Shown: positions 10,012 to 55,050 of the stretch, piece after piece
Layout of the letters: every line of letters begins with the position of its first letter
How positions within the stretch are numbered: position 1 is the first letter of the stretch
Notes under the pieces: generated by a model
The model's database searches: none
Told to the model about the DNA's origin: nothing
The model's input: the letters and a program-made list of their open reading frames with translations, nothing else
Program-made: the position numbers and the translations under genes
IMG/VR virus record: IMGVR_UViG_3300031911_000001
Span: 101,881 to 165,880 of that record
Source: a virus
Taxonomy: Duplodnaviria; Heunggongvirae; Uroviricota; Caudoviricetes
Length of the DNA stretch: 64,000 nucleotides
Strand: one strand, 5' to 3'

Positions 10012-10677
10012 TTATTCGGTAAACCCATGATGCATCTGCTGCTTGACTCCTTCAAGCAACTCTGCTGGTGTCTGTGCTTGCCACCGTGGCTCCTTAATCA
10101 GAAGGCTGCTAGCCATGCCGATCAATTCTTCTTCTCGTCCAGCCGTCAGCTGGCGATATGCTTCAACGGTCGGGGCACCGAAGTTTGCCAGAGCAAAGTT
10201 GATGGCTTCCCACTGGTCGGCATGGAATGAACAGGCGTTCTTGTCGTGCTCACGGCATTCGACTTCGGTCAGTACGCAACGGCCATTCGTCACGGCAAAG
10301 ATGTAGTTGTTGACGGCCATGAAGATGAACAGTGCCGACTGCTCCATCGAGACACCAGACGGCATCACACGCAGGTTGAACACCTTATGCACATCGTTGA
10401 ACTTGACCGTCGCTTCGAGGCGTGGATCGTCTGCAGAGATCAAGGACGTGTGATCGAAGTAGTACTCGAGGAACTTGCGGACTTCCTTGAAGTGGCCGAA
10501 TGGGAAGACCCATCCGTGTTCATCGATCTCACCCTCAATCTTGAGAGTTACGCTTCGGTCGTAGCCGTGAAACTTGGCGCACGATCCACTGAACTGCTCG
10601 TTTGATTCGTCCTTGTCGAACCACTGTTGGTGGGCACAGGGTAGATTCGGAAAGGTTTTGGCGGTCGAGAATTTCAT
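10012..10677 (-). CDS. queD: 6-carboxytetrahydropterin synthase (QueD/PTPS-like)
   Basis: CAH...CAKFHGY, GWVFPFG, FDHT, E-H-x-x-N near the C-terminal part of the fold. Confidence 0.85.
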   Translation of the reverse strand: MKFSTAKTFPNLPCAHQQWFDKDESNEQFSGSCAKFHGYDRSVTLKIEGEIDEHGWVFPFGHFKEVRKFLEYYFDHTSLISADDPRLEATVKFNDVHKVFNLRVMPSGVSMEQSALFIFMAVNNYIFAVTNGRCVLTEVECREHDKNACSFHADQWEAINFALANFGAPTVEAYRQLTAGREEELIGMASSLLIKEPRWQAQTPAELLEGVKQQMHHGFTE

Positions 10678-11137
10678 GGGCTTCGATGGTTTGGTCGTTG
10701 AAAGTGATCTGCCACGGGATGTTGTGCTGGCGGATTGCGTGGGCTACCTCGTACGAGTAGTCCTGATAGATGGTGATATCACCATGTTCAGAGAGGTAGT
10801 ATAGCTGGTTGATGATCAACGGATTGATCTCAACGCCGTAGATCTGCCAGTGAATCTTGAAGGGAGCGTCGAAGATTGCCTTGAGCAACTCTCGCTCTAC
10901 CTTGATGTCAATCTTCTGCCCTTCACCGACCTCGATGAAGAGGGTGCCGATGCTGAGGAAGTCGGGTAGACGCCTGACCAGATGGGTCAGGGCACTGTGC
11001 GGGGTGATCGATGGAATCTTGACCAGAACATCGCAGGGCATTGCCCACTGATGATCAGAGTATCGTGTGAGCTCCTTCTCAAGGAAGTGCGCACAGTCAA
11101 GATCGATGGTGATTAGGTCGGGTTTAGGTTGTTCCAT
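10535..11137 (-). CDS. Hypothetical protein overlapping queD
   Basis: 200-aa ORF from ATG 11137, 7 nt after a -10 element; overlaps queD by 143 nt. Confidence 0.55.
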   Translation of the reverse strand: MEQPKPDLITIDLDCAHFLEKELTRYSDHQWAMPCDVLVKIPSITPHSALTHLVRRLPDFLSIGTLFIEVGEGQKIDIKVERELLKAIFDAPFKIHWQIYGVEINPLIINQLYYLSEHGDITIYQDYSYEVAHAIRQHNIPWQITFNDQTIEAHEILDRQNLSESTLCPPTVVRQGRIKRAVQWIVRQVSRLRPKRNSQD

Positions 11138-11166: not shown

Positions 11167-14121
11167 TCAACTGAAGATATCATCGCTCCACTTCGGGTGA
11201 ACCTTCTCGGGTTCGACCTTACCATCGGACACGAACTTGTTGAGTACCAGAGCCTTCTCGGTCTTGTCCTTCAGTTCGTTCTTGGCGTGTTGCTTGGAGA
11301 ATGTCTTTCTCTCCTGCTCCTTCGGTTGATTGCGCTGCGTCATTTCGTTCACCTCATAGGTAATTGCTCCATCACCCGTGATTGTACAGTAAATCAGGAG
11401 AGTCGGGGAACTTTTATATCCTACGAGCTTGATAGGGATATCCGGATCAATTTTCATCCGAGTACCACGGTTGACGACAATTTCACACTCATCTTGGTGG
11501 CCGCCCCAATCACCGGGGATTACGCTCAACGTCTTGTCGAGGCCGGTGATCACCAGCATACACGAGAGCTTACGACCATCATCGGTAACTGCCCCTACAT
11601 CACTCAACTTGATCAGATCGTCGACGCTCTTGATGGTCTGGATGACGCTGGCCGAGGAAGTGACGTGTGCGGCATTGATGGATTCATTCTTGAGGAATCC
11701 ATTTGCCACCATCATGCTCATCGACGTAGAGACATAGCCGTGCATCACGTACTCTTTGCCCTCCATCAACCCTCTGAGCTCGGAGTCTAGGATGGACTGG
11801 CCGCGGAACACGACGAGTGACTTAGGCATAGGCCGGCCATACTGCTTGAAATAGTCGTCGGCCCCCTTGATGAACTGAGGCGTCTTTGTCCAATCGACCT
11901 TATTTCCACGGAGGTAACCGTTCATGGCACTGTAAGCCGAGCCGGTGTATCCAGCGATTTCGGAATTCTCAGGGAAGTAGGCGTTTTGGGCCTCTGAAAG
12001 CTGAGCCTTGATGCTGTACTTGTCATACAGCAGGGCCGCCTCGACCTTGTTCTTTGCAGCACTGAATTCGGCACTACCCGCACCCAGTACCGTCTCGATG
12101 TTACTGAGCTGCTTAAACAGCTTCTCAGGGGTGTCGGTGGAGAACTTAATTGCGAATCCACCAACCTCAATATCGAGTTCATCGAGTGTCGAGAAGATGC
12201 TTTTGTACGTCTTCCATTCAATCGGGGTGCGCTCACCCTTATCTGCAGGAGGGTTCTCACTGAGCCACTTGACCGTCTCTGCAGACAGGGGCATACCCGT
12301 CTTGCCACGCAGACCATTTGCCATGCCCTTGGGAGCCTTCTTGGCAACCACCGGGGTCGTCTCGGTCGGAGTCGTCTTGGTCGCTGTCTTGGTGCCAGCG
12401 TTCACGATGTACTCGGTGTCATTGGCAGCATAGAACTTATAGATGCCATCCAGACCGGTGTTCAGGCCAGAGAGTTCCAAGACAATTGACTCCTCAATTG
12501 CATTCTTGAATTCTTGGACAATGAGGTCTTTCTTCGGAAGACCTTTAGGGACAGACCATCCTTGGATGTCATGGATAGCACCGCCGAGACTCTTCTGTAC
12601 CTTCGCCTTCACAGCGACACGCAAACCCTTGTACCACTCCTGAGACTGCATCCATTTCTCAGCTGAGCTGAAATCCGACTGAGACATGAAGAAATGAGCA
12701 TCGGCAAGGAACTTCAATGGGTCTGCATCTGCAAGATGGAACCCGTTGGCGTCATAGACCTTACCGGTCAGCCCAATGAACATGAAGTTTTGTGCCGTCT
12801 TGAAGCCGGGAACGAAGAAGTATTGGAACTCTGCCTTGACTGGAGCCTTGACCTCTGGCGGCTTGGCTACCGGAGGTGTGACCGGGGCAGGGATATTGCT
12901 ACCCATGGCAAGAGCCAACTTGGAGATGAAAAGAGCAGTCTTCGGGAACTTCTTCTGATTCGTCGGCTTGTTGACGTCATCCAAAGCCTTGATCATCGCT
13001 TTGTAATTACCGGCCAGAGCAGCGGTCTTTGCCTTTGCTGCGTGCGGATTTTTAGGAACAAACCCCGGATCCTTGGGCCAGATACTGGCGGCAATCTTAT
13101 CGACTTCTTCCTTCGTCAATGCCTTGGCTACAGGCTTCGGAGCAGCCTTGGCCTTTGGTGGTTCTTCGTCAGGGAGAATCTTGAACACACCCTTCAGCTT
13201 TGACCCGGCTTCTTTATTCTTAAGATACTGGATCCAATTTGAAATAAGGGCACCCTGACCATCACCGATGACCATGTTCATTTCATAGTTCAGGATGTGA
13301 TAGAAGTCGGCCGTGGCTCCATAGAAGCTATGGCCCCACTTGTTATAGAGATTATCAAACTCTTCGGTATCACCGGCTCCGGCTGCATCCACCATGTCAT
13401 CGGTATTACCTGTGATTGGTGCACCAGTGAAGCCATAAAGAGCATCTATTATTTCATACGACACCTGCTTACCGAGAGGTTGATTCGCTTGGTAAGCAAC
13501 CTTCTTGGTCGGCTCAGGAGCATTGACAGACGTACCGGCAGACATCTTGATGTCGATCTTCTCGCCGGTGAGAACCTGACCGAGATAGCTGTTGAAGACG
13601 TTGGCCGTGCTGGCGGCTTTGCGTTTGATCACGATGACGTCGAAATCGCCATCCTTGGGGAACTTGCCGTTCAATTGCTCTGCCGTCGGGATCACCACAT
13701 TCTGCACGACCTCGAAGTCCGGACGCAGCAGCTTCGTGACGATGGCCTTGAGCGAGCTCATCTTGATGCTGAACTTGTCCTGTTGAATCACGACGATCCA
13801 GCCGTTTTTCTTCTTCGTCATGACGTTGGAGCCAAAGGCGTGCTCATATAGGATTTCACGCAGGGCGCCGAAGAATTCCAGAGGCTTGTCGATACGCTGG
13901 ATCAGGGGCTTGAACTTCTTCTGGTCCGGGGACACTTCACCGATACGCACCACCTGAACGTTCTTGCCGTAGGTGGCAAGGTTGTCGAACTTGGCCTGAT
14001 ACTCGTGGGAGTCGGTTCCGATCTTGTACGTCTGGTACGACCCCGTGACCGTCGGCTCGTCCATGGAGTAGTGCTTGTCGCCGGCGGGTTTGGTATTGAA
14101 AAGTTCGTCTATTCTTAGCAT
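11167..14121 (-). CDS. alt: Alt-like NAD:protein ADP-ribosyltransferase (R-S-E clade)
   Basis: YTGSAYSAMNGYLRG, VVFRG, YVSTS, DECEIVVNRGTRMK; N-terminus MLRIDELF resembles T4 Alt MELITELF; late promoter upstream. Confidence 0.85.
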   Translation of the reverse strand: MLRIDELFNTKPAGDKHYSMDEPTVTGSYQTYKIGTDSHEYQAKFDNLATYGKNVQVVRIGEVSPDQKKFKPLIQRIDKPLEFFGALREILYEHAFGSNVMTKKKNGWIVVIQQDKFSIKMSSLKAIVTKLLRPDFEVVQNVVIPTAEQLNGKFPKDGDFDVIVIKRKAASTANVFNSYLGQVLTGEKIDIKMSAGTSVNAPEPTKKVAYQANQPLGKQVSYEIIDALYGFTGAPITGNTDDMVDAAGAGDTEEFDNLYNKWGHSFYGATADFYHILNYEMNMVIGDGQGALISNWIQYLKNKEAGSKLKGVFKILPDEEPPKAKAAPKPVAKALTKEEVDKIAASIWPKDPGFVPKNPHAAKAKTAALAGNYKAMIKALDDVNKPTNQKKFPKTALFISKLALAMGSNIPAPVTPPVAKPPEVKAPVKAEFQYFFVPGFKTAQNFMFIGLTGKVYDANGFHLADADPLKFLADAHFFMSQSDFSSAEKWMQSQEWYKGLRVAVKAKVQKSLGGAIHDIQGWSVPKGLPKKDLIVQEFKNAIEESIVLELSGLNTGLDGIYKFYAANDTEYIVNAGTKTATKTTPTETTPVVAKKAPKGMANGLRGKTGMPLSAETVKWLSENPPADKGERTPIEWKTYKSIFSTLDELDIEVGGFAIKFSTDTPEKLFKQLSNIETVLGAGSAEFSAAKNKVEAALLYDKYSIKAQLSEAQNAYFPENSEIAGYTGSAYSAMNGYLRGNKVDWTKTPQFIKGADDYFKQYGRPMPKSLVVFRGQSILDSELRGLMEGKEYVMHGYVSTSMSMMVANGFLKNESINAAHVTSSASVIQTIKSVDDLIKLSDVGAVTDDGRKLSCMLVITGLDKTLSVIPGDWGGHQDECEIVVNRGTRMKIDPDIPIKLVGYKSSPTLLIYCTITGDGAITYEVNEMTQRNQPKEQERKTFSKQHAKNELKDKTEKALVLNKFVSDGKVEPEKVHPKWSDDIFS

Positions 14122-14139
14122 TATTCACCTCATTCTCGT

Positions 14140-14145
14140 TATTTA
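14140..14145 (-). promoter_or_regulatory. Late promoter TAAATA for alt
   Basis: GGTAAATA 18 nt upstream of the alt ATG; GAGG RBS. Confidence 0.7.
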
Positions 14146-14147
14146 CC

Positions 14148-14176
14148 TTGACACATCCATCAACCGCATGTACATT
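14148..14176 (+). promoter_or_regulatory. sigma70 early promoter for ADP-ribosylhydrolase
   Basis: TTGACA-17-TACATT. Confidence 0.75.
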
Positions 14177-14205
14177 AACCCCATTGAAACCTGCTGGAGA
14201 GCACC

Positions 14206-15105
14206 ATGAAGTACAATGTAATTTTTGAATCGATGAAGGCACAGGCCCTTGCAGACGCAGTCGGTCGTCCCTTGGAGTTCAATCCGAACCCCACACCGGC
14301 CCAGGTCCGTCAGTCCCTGTCCAGCCCTTTCCTACGGATCAGCGATGACACCCAGATGGCGATGTTCACCATGGAGGCCATGCGCGAGATTATGGTTGAC
14401 TGGCTGCACCACGTCAATCGCAAGGCCGAACACATCTACGCCAAGCACATGGTCGAATGGCTCAACACACAGCACAAGGACGACTTCCCGCAGAACAACA
14501 CATGGCTCGGCACCCACCGGCGCATGCAATACTCGGCGGCCCCGGGTCATACCTGCATCAATGCCATCGACGACCTCAAGTACGGTGCCGTCCCCAAGAA
14601 CACTTCGCTGGGCAGTGGAATCGTGATGAAGGCCCTGCCGTTTGCGCTGTCGCTGATTGCCATCGAAAGTGGTGAACTGGAAGACATTGCGAAGCGCCTC
14701 TCGGTACTGACCCACAAGTCTAGCCTGACCAACGGCGTCGTCACTGACTACCTGTACGCTGCGTCTCGGTTCATGGCCGACGGTACTTCCGAATACGCAA
14801 GGAATGTTGCGAGCAAGGGCACCACCATCGAAAACCACGGCAAGGGCTGGAACGCTCGCGAATGCCTGCAGATGGCCCTGTGGGCTGTCGGTAACGCCGA
14901 GTCCTATGAAGAGCTACTCGAACTGAGCATCTGCCACGGTGGTGACTCCGACACAGTCGCGGCCGTTGCCGGTGGCCTGTGGGGTCTGGCCGGTCTACCG
15001 ATTGGCGACGAAGCCGAAACGGCCTTCAAGCAGGTCTTCGAAGGAGAACTGGTCCGTGAGACCTGCGAGCGTTTCGACCATATCGTTACCCTTGCAAATG
15101 CATAG
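14206..15105 (+). CDS. ADP-ribosylglycohydrolase (DraG/ARH family)
   Basis: LADAVGRPLEF, SDDTQM, GSGIVMKALP, LTH, GGDSDTVAAVAGGLWG; GGAG RBS. Confidence 0.9.
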   Translation: MKYNVIFESMKAQALADAVGRPLEFNPNPTPAQVRQSLSSPFLRISDDTQMAMFTMEAMREIMVDWLHHVNRKAEHIYAKHMVEWLNTQHKDDFPQNNTWLGTHRRMQYSAAPGHTCINAIDDLKYGAVPKNTSLGSGIVMKALPFALSLIAIESGELEDIAKRLSVLTHKSSLTNGVVTDYLYAASRFMADGTSEYARNVASKGTTIENHGKGWNARECLQMALWAVGNAESYEELLELSICHGGDSDTVAAVAGGLWGLAGLPIGDEAETAFKQVFEGELVRETCERFDHIVTLANA

Positions 15106-15746: not shown

Positions 15747-16214
15747 CTAGGGCTTCACACTCGCGTCACTGTGGTTACGATACTTGACCCGTGGAAAGGT
15801 CTGCGCAAGGAGTACCAAGTCCTTGGCGAAGGCATCGACCTTGATAATCTTGATCTTGCTGTAGCGGTCAATGTTGTAGATGGCAACAAACCGATGGGAG
15901 CCGTCGATGACGAACCCGTCCTTTGAGACGATGACCGGAGCCCACTTGGCAACCTGACCTGCCCGGTACATGGTCATCAGCTTGAAGACCTTGGCTTTGT
16001 TGATCTCGTTCTGGGTCAGCATCAGGCGATCAACCTGAGTCTGCGTGTGCTTGCTCTCGATTCCTTTGGTAGCCAGCCAGTTAACGAACTCGGCCTGATG
16101 GGGTCCGTCGATCTGTGGCATCTGGCTTCTCATGATTCCGAGGTTGCCCGTAGGCAACTGCACGTTGTTGATCATCGAGAAGGCATCAAAAAATGTTTGG
16201 AATGAGGGGAGCAT
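15747..16214 (-). CDS. ParB/Srx-like domain protein
   Basis: LMLTQNEIN...PVIVSKDGFVIDGSHRF. Confidence 0.7.
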   Translation of the reverse strand: MLPSFQTFFDAFSMINNVQLPTGNLGIMRSQMPQIDGPHQAEFVNWLATKGIESKHTQTQVDRLMLTQNEINKAKVFKLMTMYRAGQVAKWAPVIVSKDGFVIDGSHRFVAIYNIDRYSKIKIIKVDAFAKDLVLLAQTFPRVKYRNHSDASVKP

Positions 16215-16731
16215 CTTCGTCTTCTTCTACAGGAAGGTGGGGGCGGTTGCAGAGAATCGCCTCTGCATTCATGTAGTTAGTCCAGCCCATGCCATCGTAT
16301 TGGTCCGTCTTCACGTAGTGCGTGTAGAGGTCCTCATCCTTGTCATAGCCGGGTGGATGTAGACGGTCGTCATCCAAGATGACATATGCTTCAAGCATCT
16401 CATCGTGTGCGGACTCATACCAGTCGATCCACTTCCGAATCTCCAGCTGACGGTTCGTGTAGACATCGGGAGTTTTCCAGTAGTGCTCATGACTGAACAG
16501 CAACTGGCCGAACTCAGGAACTACGGCACTCAGGACGTCACCGATCCAGTCCCTGCTACGTCCGTATCTCCACGTCGAACTGACGACGATCTTGGCCCCG
16601 GTAGTCAGGGCCAATTTCTTGACAAGGCCACCAGCGGCCGGATCGATCAACGATGACGACCGGTCTCCCATAGCAATGAGGTGTCTCGGGTTGCAAATCA
16701 CCCCGTCAAAGTCAAGAAAGATGATCTTCAT
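16186..16731 (-). CDS. HAD phosphatase (Swiss-army-knife RNA-repair type)
   Basis: IFLDFDGVI, IVVSSTWR, YVILDDD. Confidence 0.85.
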   Translation of the reverse strand: MKIIFLDFDGVICNPRHLIAMGDRSSSLIDPAAGGLVKKLALTTGAKIVVSSTWRYGRSRDWIGDVLSAVVPEFGQLLFSHEHYWKTPDVYTNRQLEIRKWIDWYESAHDEMLEAYVILDDDRLHPPGYDKDEDLYTHYVKTDQYDGMGWTNYMNAEAILCNRPHLPVEEDEDAPLIPNIF

Positions 16732-17223
16732 TTAGACCGCCGGGAAGACTGGCTTCTTGTAGTTGACGCTCTTCAGGAACTTGCCCTTGACGTACTCTTC
16801 GCCGTCCTTGCCGATCACAGTTTCCTTGACCTTGACGGCAACCATCGGGAACACCCCTTCACTGTAGGTCTCGACCCCGAGGGCTTGGTACTTGTTGAGG
16901 GTATGGGCCAGCTCCTCTGTGTTCTTGCACAGGCGACTGAACAGGGAGTCGGTGACGGCCTTCAGGTCTGCATCACCATCGACGCCGAGGTAGAACTGGC
17001 CGCCATGGGCGAAGACGATGATGTCGCACAGGGCATCACGGGCCTCTTCGACGTTGTTCTCGGCAATGGCCTTGTAGAGCTCCTTGACCTCACCCTGCAG
17101 ACCGTTCGATCCGTCACCGGCGATGTTACGGACCAGATTCACGAACCGTTCACTGATGACCGGGGTTCCCTTGGGGTTGCCGAAAGCTGTGTTGACCGTT
17201 GCTACGTCTTGAAAAGCACTCAT
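16732..17223 (-). CDS. MazG-like nucleoside triphosphate pyrophosphohydrolase
   Basis: All-alpha ExxE...ExxD pattern: GEVKEL...EEARDALCDIIVF; C-terminal GKFLKSVNYKKP. Confidence 0.75.
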   Translation of the reverse strand: MSAFQDVATVNTAFGNPKGTPVISERFVNLVRNIAGDGSNGLQGEVKELYKAIAENNVEEARDALCDIIVFAHGGQFYLGVDGDADLKAVTDSLFSRLCKNTEELAHTLNKYQALGVETYSEGVFPMVAVKVKETVIGKDGEEYVKGKFLKSVNYKKPVFPAV

Positions 17224-17246
17224 TAGAAATCCTCAGTAAAACCGTA

Positions 17247-17268
17247 ATTCTACTGAGGATCGGTTCAA
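17247..17268 (-). promoter_or_regulatory. Short-spacer promoter (TTGAAC-10-TAGAAT)
   Basis: Recurring motif; overlaps the 10-bp inverted repeat 17229-17260. Confidence 0.55.
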
Positions 17269-17278
17269 CGAGACGAGA

Positions 17279-17638
17279 TCAATACTCGGCAGGTGCCTTG
17301 AGGTTCTCGTCGTAATCCAAGATGAAGGGTTCCTTCTCGATCAGGCCAAGCATGAACTTGAGGCTGTCGGCATCGTACCGGGCACGGTCGTAGTATTCCG
17401 AGCGATGGACTTGGAAGCCCTTCTCGAACAGATCGAATCCGGTGGCATCTGCAGGATGGAGGACGACGGTCCAGTTCCGTTTGCCGTTGCTTTCCGGCAT
17501 GGAGTCGAACCACACGGCCAAGGGCTGTTGCCCTGTGACCTTGATTGCCAAGAGGGTCTCGTCGCCGCGCTCCTGCCGGAACACGACTTTGGCCTGACGC
17601 TTGTCGCCTTCTGGCAGTTCAAGAACAATGGTTTTCAT
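17279..17638 (-). CDS. Hypothetical protein
   Basis: Start MKTIVLELP couples to the macrodomain gene stop (ATGA-type overlap). Confidence 0.6.
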   Translation of the reverse strand: MKTIVLELPEGDKRQAKVVFRQERGDETLLAIKVTGQQPLAVWFDSMPESNGKRNWTVVLHPADATGFDLFEKGFQVHRSEYYDRARYDADSLKFMLGLIEKEPFILDYDENLKAPAEY

Positions 17639-18120
17639 GGTTGGTATTCGACGAGAGTGATGTTGATGTCCGGGGTCGCCTTGTTGATAAGGCGGGAGAT
17701 GTGTTGCCAGTTGCCTCCGGCAATCCCTGCACCGATCATCGGGATGCCGATGTGCGGCGTCTCGGACCAACCCTCGATCTTCTCGGCCAGTTCCTTCAGG
17801 TCATCGTTCAGTTCCTGGAAGGCTGCCTCGATGTTCTTGTTCAGCTTGACCGAGTCCTCGCGGCCGGGTAGGAGCTGCGTGTACAGGTTGAAGATGATCC
17901 CGTGGGCCACTTCGGCCGCCGAGTACTGACCCGTGACGTTGGCACCGGCGATGTGGTGTTTGATGTCGGCTTCGAGTGCTTCGGGGAACTCGGACGAGAC
18001 ACCGGCTGCAATACCGGCCCCCATCGTATGGCAGCAGTTGCAGCCGTGGGCGATTCCATCGAACCTGCCCTCTTTGAACATCGAAAGCAGGTTACCTTTG
18101 ACCGTTTGACGAATTGGCAT
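17635..18120 (-). CDS. Macrodomain protein (ADP-ribose binding/hydrolase; T4 Tk.4-like)
   Basis: KGNLL, IAHGCNC...MGAGIA, IFNLYTQ, IGIPMIGAGIAGGNW. Confidence 0.9.
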   Translation of the reverse strand: MPIRQTVKGNLLSMFKEGRFDGIAHGCNCCHTMGAGIAAGVSSEFPEALEADIKHHIAGANVTGQYSAAEVAHGIIFNLYTQLLPGREDSVKLNKNIEAAFQELNDDLKELAEKIEGWSETPHIGIPMIGAGIAGGNWQHISRLINKATPDINITLVEYQP

Positions 18121-18352
18121 CTTTACTCTCCAGTGTTGACGGCGACATGCAGTCAGGTTGTTGACGTCCACAGTATAACTGTGTTGCGATGGCTTTCAAC
18201 CTCTTTTCGTCGACGGTCGTAATTGTTTTGTACGCAAAGACGCCTGCGGTGATCCAGATACCAAGAATCAGGACGATCGTACCGACGAACATGCACCAGA
18301 AGATTCTGGTGAAGAGACGCATCTGCTTGTGGTGTTGCTCCAGCGATTTCAT
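18092..18352 (-). CDS. Small membrane protein
   Basis: One hydrophobic helix (IFWCMFVGTIVLILGIWITAGVFAY); start coupled to the upstream stop. Confidence 0.5.
   Translation of the reverse strand: MKSLEQHHKQMRLFTRIFWCMFVGTIVLILGIWITAGVFAYKTITTVDEKRLKAIATQLYCGRQQPDCMSPSTLESKDANSSNGQR
18172..18199 (-). promoter_or_regulatory. sigma70-like promoter for macrodomain gene
   Basis: TTGAAA-16-TATACT. Confidence 0.6.
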
Positions 18353-18924
18353 AGGATTGTCTTTCCGTGGTGTGGTTGCGTTGGCTTGTTGATGAGCAGG
18401 GCATGGATTTCCTTCCATGTGTAAGGGGTCATCCCGGGCCGGGTGTCGATGCCGACGTCCATGCTCCGGAACGGCTGGTTCGGCAGATCGCCATGCACAT
18501 GACCAAACAGGTGGAAGGAGCCACGCTGTGCGTTACGCCATTCCTGAATCGGGTAGTGGAACAGGTAGACGTTGATCCCGTCGATCTGAATCTCCTTGTA
18601 GTCCTGCACGCTCTCGAAGTACGGAGTGAACAAGTCCTTCCACTTCTTGATGAACTGGCAGTGATTGCCGGTGATCAGGTGGATCTTCCCCTTGAGCCTC
18701 TCGAGAATGGCGACGATCTTGTCGGGATCACGATGGAAGGTGAAGTCGCCAAGACAGTAGACGGTGCTCGTGTCCTTGATGACGGCATTCCACCGCTCGA
18801 TCATGATCTCATCCATCTCATCTGTGTTGGAGCCCTCTCGGGTCTTGGGACAGAAGTTGAGGATGCCCTTGTGCCCGAAGTGGTTGTCGGACGTGAAGAA
18901 GATGTTTTCTGCGAGTGTTGTCAT
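18349..18924 (-). CDS. Calcineurin-like metallophosphoesterase
   Basis: SDNHFGH, LGDF, GNH, FHYP, LFGHVH. Confidence 0.9.
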   Translation of the reverse strand: MTTLAENIFFTSDNHFGHKGILNFCPKTREGSNTDEMDEIMIERWNAVIKDTSTVYCLGDFTFHRDPDKIVAILERLKGKIHLITGNHCQFIKKWKDLFTPYFESVQDYKEIQIDGINVYLFHYPIQEWRNAQRGSFHLFGHVHGDLPNQPFRSMDVGIDTRPGMTPYTWKEIHALLINKPTQPHHGKTIL

Positions 18925-19901
18925 TGTGTGATCATCCGATTTTCAAACCAATTGCGGACGAAGTGTACACGAGCCTGCTCGTCCATTGCCATGAATCCAT
19001 CAACATTTTGGCGCAGGTGCTCGATCAGGTCGTAGTATTCTTCTTCAACCTTGACGTGACCAAGGTCTTTCCAGTCTGGCTTTGTGAGCAAGTCCTGGAG
19101 CTTGGCCTCCGTCTTCCGGGCAAAGAACTTGGTGATCAGGTACTGAGGCGACTTGATCTTGAGGGCCTTATTGTCCCATCCGTAACGTTGCGTGTAGACG
19201 ACATACCCCTCATGGTCCGCGACCCGGGCCTTCTCGACTACTTCTTTGAACTTACCGATTTCACAAGGCACGTGGAAGACACCAAGTTTACGACACATGT
19301 CACTCGGAAGCTCTGGGAAGAACATCGAGTTGAGGTCTTGCTTGTTCCATCCGTCTGGACGCAGGTGAAGAGCTAGACCGTAGGCACCAAACTCTTCTTT
19401 GATGATGTGAGGATCGGCCGGGTGGCAAATCTCAAACAGCATCGTCATGTGGCCCATGCCGGTGCCACCTACGTTCTTTAGGTACTCGACCCACTGTGGA
19501 CCAGCTTTGTTCTTGTAAAGCATATCGGCTGCCAACTTGACATAGTCAGAGTCGGTGGAGCCTGTCGTTGAAACTATCAGATCATCACGTCCGGGGATGT
19601 AGGTCACTGCGGCCATGAAGCCGTTGACCTTGCGATAGTAGAGAACGTCCTCTTCAAGGTCGTAGTCGGTGCCTCGTTCGAACCTGTTGTAGATTTTCTT
19701 GAACGGTTGAACCACTAGATTCCAATTGGCGTCGACGATCAGGCCACGACACCATTCCAGCTCAGGCGTCCACAGATTGTTGAAGAACACCTTCCGGTGA
19801 TACTTGAGGACGAACAGTCCCGGATGTGTGGTCGATTCCTTGCGGTATATCAGGCCGGGATTGGCTTCCATGAAAGCCTTGATGTCGAGTGTTGTGATCA
19901 T
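18921..19901 (-). CDS. RNA ligase 1-like (RnlA family)
   Basis: LKY...ECRG-like WCRGL, PFKKIYN, KVNG adenylation motif, FEI, EGYVV, KIKS. Confidence 0.85.
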   Translation of the reverse strand: MITTLDIKAFMEANPGLIYRKESTTHPGLFVLKYHRKVFFNNLWTPELEWCRGLIVDANWNLVVQPFKKIYNRFERGTDYDLEEDVLYYRKVNGFMAAVTYIPGRDDLIVSTTGSTDSDYVKLAADMLYKNKAGPQWVEYLKNVGGTGMGHMTMLFEICHPADPHIIKEEFGAYGLALHLRPDGWNKQDLNSMFFPELPSDMCRKLGVFHVPCEIGKFKEVVEKARVADHEGYVVYTQRYGWDNKALKIKSPQYLITKFFARKTEAKLQDLLTKPDWKDLGHVKVEEEYYDLIEHLRQNVDGFMAMDEQARVHFVRNWFENRMITQ

Positions 19902-54426: not shown

Positions 54427-55050
54427 ATGAGATTCATTACAGAACAACTCGATGAGGGTCTCGTACCTCTCGTTGAATGGACAAAGACAGACGGCGTCCT
54501 GTACATCGAGGGTCCATTCCTCATGGCAGAAGCCAAGAACCGCAACGGCCGCTTCTACCCGAAGCAGTTGATGGAACAGTGTGTGGACCGCTACACCAAG
54601 GACTACATCAATGAGCGTCGTGCCATCGGTGAACTGAATCATCCTGAGCGTCCGTTCGCCGACCCGATGCATGCTGCCATCATCGTTGAGTCCCTGTCAT
54701 GGGAAAAGAACAACGTGATCGGCAAGGCGCGCGTCATCGATTCTATCGAAGGACGTCAAGTCAAAGCCCTGATGGAAGCTAACTTCCGTATGGGCGTCTC
54801 GTCACGTGGTCTGGGCAAGCTCAAGCAGCTCCGTGAACACGTACTGGTCGAGAAATACGTCCTCAATGCTATTGACGCCGTAGATCGTCCGAGCGGCCAA
54901 ACCTGCTATGTAGATGCAGTAAATGAATCTACGGTCAACGAGTGGGTCGAGGAAAACGGTATCTGGGTTGAAAAGAAGCGCTTTGACGAGCAGGCCTTCC
55001 TGAACAACTTGGATCGCATGGTTGAGATTCTGAAAAAGAATCGTCAATAA
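54427..55050 (+). CDS. gp21: Prohead protease
   Basis: LYIEGPF..AE.KNRNGR.YP, GEL.HP, GVSSRG.G, D.V..PS. Confidence 0.95.
   Translation: MRFITEQLDEGLVPLVEWTKTDGVLYIEGPFLMAEAKNRNGRFYPKQLMEQCVDRYTKDYINERRAIGELNHPERPFADPMHAAIIVESLSWEKNNVIGKARVIDSIEGRQVKALMEANFRMGVSSRGLGKLKQLREHVLVEKYVLNAIDAVDRPSGQTCYVDAVNESTVNEWVEENGIWVEKKRFDEQAFLNNLDRMVEILKKNRQ

Follow-up and report, generated by a model that had tools for sequence, protein, structure and literature searches.

The window analysed here, a stretch of 64,000 nucleotides, corresponds to bases 101881-165880 of the 167,950-bp IMG/VR virus record IMGVR_UViG_3300031911_000001, which is rated complete by CheckV. It carries two divergent genes, one encoding a large protein related to the ADP-ribosyltransferase (ART) Alt of phage T4, the other an ADP-ribosylhydrolase (ARH) of the ARH/DraG family, and a genome-wide count yielded exactly one ART and one ARH. 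That alt and an ARH/DraG gene diverge from an 84-bp spacer had already been proposed in a sequence-only reading of this DNA, and the coordinates of both open reading frames (ORFs) proved exact. Here, we describe the two proteins, the conservation of their linkage and the promoter elements between the genes, and consider whether the hydrolase serves to erase the marks set by the transferase. The features of the locus are as follows.

11167-14121, minus strand: alt-like gene, an ORF of 984 aa with an N-terminal module, Ala/Lys/Pro-rich linkers and a C-terminal R-S-ExE ADP-ribosyltransferase domain
11446-11970, minus strand: ART catalytic domain, aa 718-892 (Pfam envelope), with R773, S798-T-S800 and E878-x-E880
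13552-14121, minus strand: N-terminal module of about 190 aa starting MLRIDELF, a candidate capsid-targeting and protease-processing module
14122-14205: spacer of 84 bp between the divergent genes
14140-14145, minus strand: late-type element TAAATA (read as GGTAAATAA on the strand of alt), placed 24 nt upstream of the ATG of alt
14148-14176, plus strand: sigma70-type promoter TTGACA-17-TACATT facing the hydrolase gene (-35 at 14148-14153, -10 at 14171-14176)
14196-14199, plus strand: GGAG, read from the sequence as the ribosome-binding site of the hydrolase gene
14206-15105, plus strand: ARH/DraG-family ADP-ribosylhydrolase gene, an ORF of 299 aa with E24, D47-D48-T49 and D247-S-D249
10535-11137, minus strand: gene of 200 aa directly downstream of alt, family unassigned, a possible accessory of the ART/ARH pair

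Judged by its gene content, the uncultured soil phage is a distant T4-like myovirus with a lytic-type genome and a G+C content of about 53%. Among the T4-type genes are those for a gp6-type baseplate wedge, the tail sheath, a gp43-type DNA polymerase, a gp44-type clamp loader, a gp55-type late sigma factor (G000:38139-38672; 34% identity to T4 gp55, E 2.5e-19) and a gp21-type prohead protease (window 54427-55050; PF03420, E 2.1e-39). Only one sequencing run, of a rhizosphere metagenome from which the record may have come, contains the whole stretch, and no RNA sequencing run containing it appeared in the run listing. In a megablast search, no GenBank phage matched the 3.9-kb region.

The Alt-like transferase

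Residues 718-892 of the alt product matched PF03496 (ADPrib_exo_Tox; E 4.3e-13, 49.5 bits against a cut-off of 23.4), and the protein fell into phrog_802 of PHROGs, the Alt-like RNA polymerase ADP-ribosyltransferases (E 5.6e-33). Similarly, BLASTP aligned residues 722-892 with T4 Alt at 26% identity (E 4e-11). This part of the protein contains the motifs VVFRGQS (R773), YVSTSMS (S798-T-S800) and QDECEIVV (E878 and E880), whose FRG, STS and E-C-E are paired with YRS, STS and E-M-E of T4 Alt. When the window ART was aligned with eleven other hydrolase-linked transferases (alignment A4), the STS serine and both glutamates were invariant (S111, E189 and E191 of that alignment), and the other motif residues were strictly or almost strictly conserved. 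The two alignments thus bear out the R-S-ExE signature (FRG, STS, DECE) that had been read from the DNA, and by its ExE motif the enzyme belongs to the arginine-directed class. An AlphaFold model of the domain, of medium confidence (pLDDT 69), displays the ART fold and matched Certhrax, Vis, C3, iota and CDTa at a TM score by target of about 0.6. A further match was the ART of an ART-ARH pair from Listeria (8ZA7_B). A sequence search of the PDB with the ART domain produced phage Gp14 as the sole match, which was judged spurious. In short hydrolase-linked transferases of other T4-like contigs (L006:8899-9726, L007:10311-11186 and L013:10815-11672), STS and ExE are retained, whereas the position expected for the arginine of R-S-E is occupied by Thr or Ser (VYTG, VYSG).

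The first approximately 700 residues of the window Alt are unrelated to T4 Alt, and an alignment of full-length Alt found no relatives in IMG/VR. No match to the PF04233 (MuF) domain, which is present in other ARH-linked ARTs, was obtained for the 984-aa protein. Its N-terminal module, spanning some 170-190 aa, also opens two large proteins of the Ralstonia phage RSP15, the nearest cultured relative, and only one of these has an ART domain. In RSP15 (L094, 4622-11943) the two genes are adjacent, namely ORF128 (1047 aa, with ART) and ORF127 (1373 aa, without). The sharing of this module suggests, at the level of sequence, a portable head-targeting module that is joined to different cargos. A common pattern, L/I-x-E-L/V-F, marks the start of the window Alt (MLRIDELF), of T4 Alt (MELITELF) and of every relative. 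L/I-x-E is the motif cleaved by the T4 prohead protease, and for this reason packaging of the window Alt in the phage head appears plausible by analogy with T4 Alt.

The ARH-family hydrolase

The hydrolase was matched by PF03747 (ADP_ribosyl_GH; E 6.7e-32, 111.7 bits against a cut-off of 26.2) and was annotated as ADP-ribosylglycohydrolase by PHROGs. Residue E24, residues D47, D48 and T49 of the ISDDTQ motif and residues D247 and D249 of the GGDSDT motif are invariant among 22 relatives, and in Tri1, Lmo0067 and ARH1 the aligned counterparts of the glutamate and the metal-site residues are the EF, DDT and GDxDS motifs. The metal sites SDDT and DSDT, earlier described as retained, are therefore intact. 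The structural model (pLDDT 94.9) shows an all-helical ARH fold (Foldseek probability 1.00) that resembles MJ1187, DraG, Tri1, ARH3 and ARH1 alike, with TM scores of about 0.7. More discriminating was a search of the PDB with a profile of the hydrolase family, which scored Lmo0067 at 2e-21, Tri1 at 9e-18, ARH1 at 4e-15, DraG at 7e-15 and ARH3 at 5e-10. By this measure the family is closer to the arginine-specific or immunity-type enzymes Lmo0067, Tri1, ARH1 and DraG than to the serine-specific ARH3. An N-terminal extension of the Tri1 type is absent, as the catalytic E24 is situated 23 residues from the start and Tri1 aligns only from its residue 73. As had been supposed for T4, no PF03747 gene was found in that phage, nor was one found in RSP15, and tblastn against GenBank phages gave a single weak match in an unannotated faecal phage.

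Conservation of the linkage

Scanning IMG/VR with the hydrolase alignment yielded 80 loci, whose flanks were searched with an iterated transferase HMM. Together with six loci found earlier, these provided 57 loci that were fully flanked, i.e. with at least 3 kb on both sides. An ART gene resides next to the hydrolase gene in 37 of them. For 35 of these the distance of the domain was decisive; the other two are L004 and L005, whose adjacent gene has the domain at its distal end. Across 1.3 Mb of flanking sequence 57 transferase ORFs were identified, 49 of them no more than 1.5 kb from the hydrolase gene and four beyond 3 kb.

The divergent arrangement of alt and hydrolase is kept in all four contigs in which both genes are whole (L004, L005, L095 and the P0005 contig), and the truncated contigs L096 and L097 have, at the same place, a cut divergent gene with the Alt N-terminal motif. 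Among these close relatives the neighbourhood of folE, queD, alt, hydrolase, exonuclease and HAD genes is collinear as a whole, so that the pairing within the close clade proves little by itself. More informative are hydrolases of about 33-36% identity in other T4-like contigs, which are located near rIIB, topoisomerase or NAMPT genes and adjoin short PF03496 transferases (267-291 aa) in the same orientation. Many further partner transferases are large head-associated or polyvalent proteins with MuF-ART, Zeta-toxin-ART or ART-PolyVal-ART architectures. In hydrolase-linked polyvalent proteins of 1380-1695 aa (L026:5248-9666, L050:5380-9519 and L086:3805-8889), the C-terminal PF03496 domain is accompanied by either a Zeta-toxin kinase domain or another ART-PolyVal domain.

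In a tree of 66 hydrolases, the window hydrolase falls into a well-supported clade of 19 with five distinct ART layouts, among them a divergent Alt, short or large co-directional transferases and transferases on the opposite strand. The clade also has five members without a nearby transferase; one of these five members comes from a complete genome whose single transferase is encoded 34 kb from the hydrolase. Thus, as far as gene order and phylogeny indicate, the ART-ARH association is clade-specific and has been maintained through rearrangements and swaps of the partner, which argues for a catalytic rather than a lock-and-key relationship. The survey of synteny therefore agrees with the earlier expectation of a conserved linkage, in the form of a transferase/hydrolase pair maintained in evolution across several layouts.

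The 200-aa gene that follows alt is kept in L004 and L005 (27-30% identity), and the P0005 contig has a gene of similar size directly after alt; in L095 no gene is called at this place. Its product had no match in Pfam or PHROGs, and it could be an Alt accessory or else part of the deazaguanine operon. The 3' end of the gene overlaps the start of queD by 143 nt.

Promoter elements in the spacer

The canonical T4 late box, TATAAATA, was rejected as the late element of this phage, since it does not occur in the 168-kb genome despite the gp55 homologue. TAAATA and TAAGTA, by comparison, occur 49 times, and 24 of these sites are located within 60 nt upstream of a start codon on the same strand, mostly at a distance of 20-32 nt and mostly at structural genes. 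The genes preceded in this way include those for the baseplate wedge and the sheath, a fibre gene, neighbours in the structural block and alt (starts at, for example, window 25733, 28910, 36501, 38383, 38838, 45250, 49102 and 52232). On the distribution of these sites, TAA[AG]TA is the late-promoter element of the phage. The element that faces the hydrolase gene, TTGACA-17-TACATT, resembles strong sigma70-like sites which end 20-40 nt before non-structural genes of the genome, and its -10 hexamer ends 30 nt before the hydrolase ATG. Both elements exceed chance.

The spacer was compared among six contigs, the window, L004, L005, L095, L096 and L097, with hydrolases 42-49% identical to that of the window. 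Each has GTAAATA or TTAAATA on the alt strand, at a distance of 24-28 nt upstream of the start of alt except in L005 (43 nt) and in L096, where the distance is about 24 nt provided that translation begins at the second Met. The late element is abutted by the -35 hexamer of a TTGAC(A/G)-17-TA(C/G)A(T/A/G)T promoter, which ends 28-32 nt before the hydrolase start and reaches a sigma70 score of 10-11 out of 12 in five of the six spacers, while the remainder of the spacer has diverged. By sequence comparison, the spacer is hence a conserved and compact back-to-back pair of a predicted early and a predicted late promoter. The late TAAATA facing alt was already part of the sequence-only reading and is confirmed by its retention in the related spacers and its enrichment before structural genes; the sigma70-type TTGACA-17-TACATT facing the hydrolase likewise has equivalents there. 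The opposite timing deduced from them stands in part: the promoter split is kept across the six contigs, but the pair is co-directional in the distant T4-like relatives, so that the split is a trait of this clade rather than a general one.

A second sigma70-like site on the minus strand within the hydrolase gene (14417-14389), considered as a possible source of early transcripts of alt, is missing from both L004 and L005 and was attributed to chance. At the other end, no convincing intrinsic terminator was detected after the hydrolase gene, whose 3' end overlaps that of a convergent gene for an Rv2179c-like exonuclease by 20 nt (window 15086-15105) without a terminator in between. The same tail-to-tail overlap of the two genes is seen in every relative (L004, L005 and L095-L097), and early hydrolase transcripts would thus run antisense into the exonuclease operon.

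Discussion

The intact catalytic residues, the folds of the two proteins, their conserved coupling and the conserved promoter elements together lead us to regard the hydrolase as the probable cognate eraser, or immunity enzyme, of the phage's own Alt-like arginine-directed transferase, a view that we favour with some reservation. From these data, and largely by analogy with T4 Alt, we infer the following course of events. Alt would be transcribed late from its gp55-type TAAATA promoter, its N-terminus would be trimmed by the gp21-type prohead protease, and the protein would then be packed into the head and injected at the next infection. Right after injection, host RNA polymerase would read the sigma70-type promoter of the spacer, and hydrolase would accumulate early, as the conservation of this promoter implies. 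As a two-metal ARH enzyme, the hydrolase would cleave ADP-ribose off arginine side chains and in this way limit or reverse the marks set by Alt. These would include both the marks of the injected Alt, once their job is finished, and those that newly made late Alt would set on phage proteins and on the machinery of transcription and translation. Two uses that do not exclude each other would fit, namely a reset of the marks of injected Alt after the immediate-early phase and shielding during late Alt synthesis. The presence of solely an early promoter leans slightly towards the reset; early proteins persist, however. The distant relatives, in which the two genes are seemingly co-transcribed, would fit simple self-protection. 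A more specific version is a write-then-erase timer, in which host targets, for example RNA polymerase, are marked by the injected Alt at entry, early hydrolase strips these marks within minutes and so ends the immediate-early state, and new Alt is kept harmless until packed. We regard this timer as possible but doubtful.

Several observations weigh against the role as eraser. An ARH is absent from T4, from RSP15 and from hundreds of cultured phages that carry Alt, and an eraser is thus not needed for Alt function in general. The arginine specificity of the hydrolase is deduced from the ExE motif of its partner and from the proximity of its profile to arginine-specific enzymes, while the comparison of modelled folds does not separate arginine-type from serine-type ARHs. 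Furthermore, the equivalent of DraG D97 could not be mapped with confidence, and the position is variable in the clade of the window hydrolase. The match to the sigma70 promoter is weak in the L004 spacer, at 7 of 12. Finally, a separate group of about 25 phage ARHs (the L028-L063 group) has no ART within 1.7 kb.

This last group may serve in counter-defence or in another role, and it would fit the view that the early hydrolase mainly strips foreign marks, set by host ART defences, contact-dependent toxins or the Alt of superinfecting phages, rather than those of its own Alt. Expression from a conserved early promoter would suit such an anti-defence function, and Tri1-type ARHs are said, from the work of Ting and colleagues in 2018, to be able to protect against non-cognate ARTs. 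In the clade of the window hydrolase, however, the hydrolase is as a rule linked to a phage ART or found in the same genome as one, even though the loci have been rearranged repeatedly, which selection by foreign ARTs alone would not produce, and we therefore consider this explanation unlikely. The neutralisation of foreign ART toxins, one of the uses listed in the sequence-only reading, is accordingly disfavoured as the main role, since the hydrolase is so closely linked to the transferase of the phage itself. Smaller still is the chance that adjacency carries no functional meaning, an accessory hydrolase having landed beside alt in an ancestor and having been kept by collinearity of the genomes; this we hold to be very improbable. 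The collinear neighbourhood of the close relatives would be in line with it, but ART and ARH genes are repeatedly paired in unrelated surroundings and in other layouts, and the compact two-way promoter is conserved although the remaining spacer has diverged.

It might also be speculated that the substrate of the hydrolase is something other than protein arginine, such as ADP-ribose on RNA or another nucleic acid, O-acetyl-ADP-ribose or a small derivative, and that the enzyme belongs to a neighbouring RNA-repair/NAD module. The genes that would make up this module are located near the hydrolase gene:

16186-16731, minus strand: HAD_SAK_2
16732-17223, minus strand: MazG-like protein
17635-18120, minus strand: Macro-like protein, phrog_335 'phosphatase' (Pfam Macro below cut-off)
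18349-18924, minus strand: metallophosphatase
18921-19901, minus strand: RnlA-type RNA ligase

By its gene content, the minus-strand stretch 16186-19901 is likely an RNA-repair module. A weak Macro-domain match at 17635-18171, considered as a second protein eraser, fits better with these neighbouring genes. The presence of the Macro-like phosphatase, HAD_SAK_2, metallophosphatase and RNA ligase nearby would agree with a non-protein substrate, as would the variety of substrates known for the ARH family, for which the contextual work in PMC9503650 suggests a wider range still. In contrast, the hydrolase gene is a lone plus-strand gene that has its own promoter, shares its spacer with alt and stands outside the minus-strand repair operon; its recurrent phage partner is a protein-modifying ART of the PF03496 family; and the authors of PMC9503650 argue that phage ARH enzymes prefer macromolecular conjugates. 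We thus think a non-protein substrate improbable, somewhat more so than a role directed mainly at foreign ARTs.

If the hydrolase is the eraser of Alt, the pair joins several known systems, with which it shares the principle but not the setting. The closest is Bxa/BAH/Bsi from a prophage of Bacteroides stercoris (Alexei et al. 2024, PMC11699363), likewise a phage-encoded PF03496-class transferase next to an ARH1-like hydrolase. Bxa makes N-linked ADP-ribose marks which BAH removes, a reaction that requires its catalytic Glu. As in the window hydrolase, this Glu is located near the N-terminus and a plug-like extension is lacking. Bxa itself is a polymorphic toxin of a temperate prophage with a different N-terminal domain and with immunity genes beside it, whereas the window has a T4-type Alt instead of a MuF fusion, a lytic-type T4-like genome and divergent genes that each have their own class of promoter; moreover, no small structural immunity protein like the inhibitor Bsi was recognised at the window pair. 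Tre1-Tri1 of the Serratia proteamaculans type VI secretion system (T6SS; PDB 6DRH) and the Lmo0066/Lmo0067-type pair (8ZA7) also join an R-S-E arginine transferase to a DraG-like reversing hydrolase. Lmo0067 and Tri1 are the best PDB profile matches of the window hydrolase, and both partners of 8ZA7 were among the structural matches. Unlike the window pair, these are secreted bacterial effectors with the immunity gene in one operon. Tri1 additionally blocks Tre1 by an N-terminal extension of about 70 residues. As the window hydrolase has no such extension, its mode of action is probably purely catalytic, with no plugging of the transferase, in analogy to BAH, which neither binds nor co-purifies with Bxa and thus sets an experimental precedent for catalytic-only immunity (PMC11699363).

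DraT-DraG, which is summarised together with Tre1-Tri1 as a transferase-hydrolase pair in PMC8120803, regulates nitrogenase by a reversible cycle of arginine ADP-ribosylation with an ARH-family eraser, as proposed here. The sole ART of the window's genome, however, is a PF03496 enzyme and not DraT, and there is neither a nitrogenase context nor PII regulation. Conversely, T4 Alt (with ModA and ModB) resembles the window protein in its ART domain and homologous C-terminal region. The N-terminal L/I-x-E-L-F, the late promoter and the gp55 and gp21 homologues would all fit a head-packaged, injected enzyme like T4 Alt, but the window Alt is 300 aa longer and T4 has no ARH gene. In their survey of viral NAD/ADP-ribose systems, Iyer et al. 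(2022; PMC9503650) predict pairs of an ART and an ADP-ribosylglycohydrolase (ARG) in certain Aeromonas phages. ART-coupled phage ARGs are predicted there to deconjugate macromolecular ADP-ribose and are likened to DraT-DraG. The Aeromonas-phage pairs are read as toxin-antitoxin systems, and the parts of the survey drawn on here describe neither a link to a head-packaged Alt nor a temporal split of promoters. The survey also gives ARGs as rare in phages, with roughly 5% of jumbo phages among sequenced isolates. By comparison, the metagenomic contigs analysed here hold many ART-linked cases with at least three transferase architectures, and such genes are much commoner in uncultured phages than that figure.

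Writer/eraser pairs as such are therefore already known, from Tre1-Tri1, Bxa-BAH and Lmo0067 as well as from the predictions for Aeromonas phages. The reversible switch envisaged in the sequence-only reading retains a genuine conserved pair, a hydrolase profile of the arginine type and the promoter split, but it is less new than was implied. What is new is the T4-type Alt as the partner and the conserved pair of an early-eraser and a late-writer promoter, a layout of timing that is undescribed in a lytic T4-like phage. The survey should help annotation as well as the search for arginine-specific hydrolases that could serve as tools.

How a phage rewires the transcription and translation of its host is classically taught from the ADP-ribosylation carried out by Alt, ModA and ModB of T4, and to our knowledge no ADP-ribose hydrolase is encoded by T4. 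The locus offers a natural system for asking which targets of Alt matter at which time. If the timer outlined above were true, it would be the first example of a virus that runs a complete reversible cycle of ADP-ribosylation on host machinery, hard-wired in a back-to-back early/late promoter. That a T4-like lineage has its own probable eraser, and that the conserved early promoter of this gene is opposed to a late promoter from which the injected writer would be made, suggests that these phages can deliberately remove or confine the marks.

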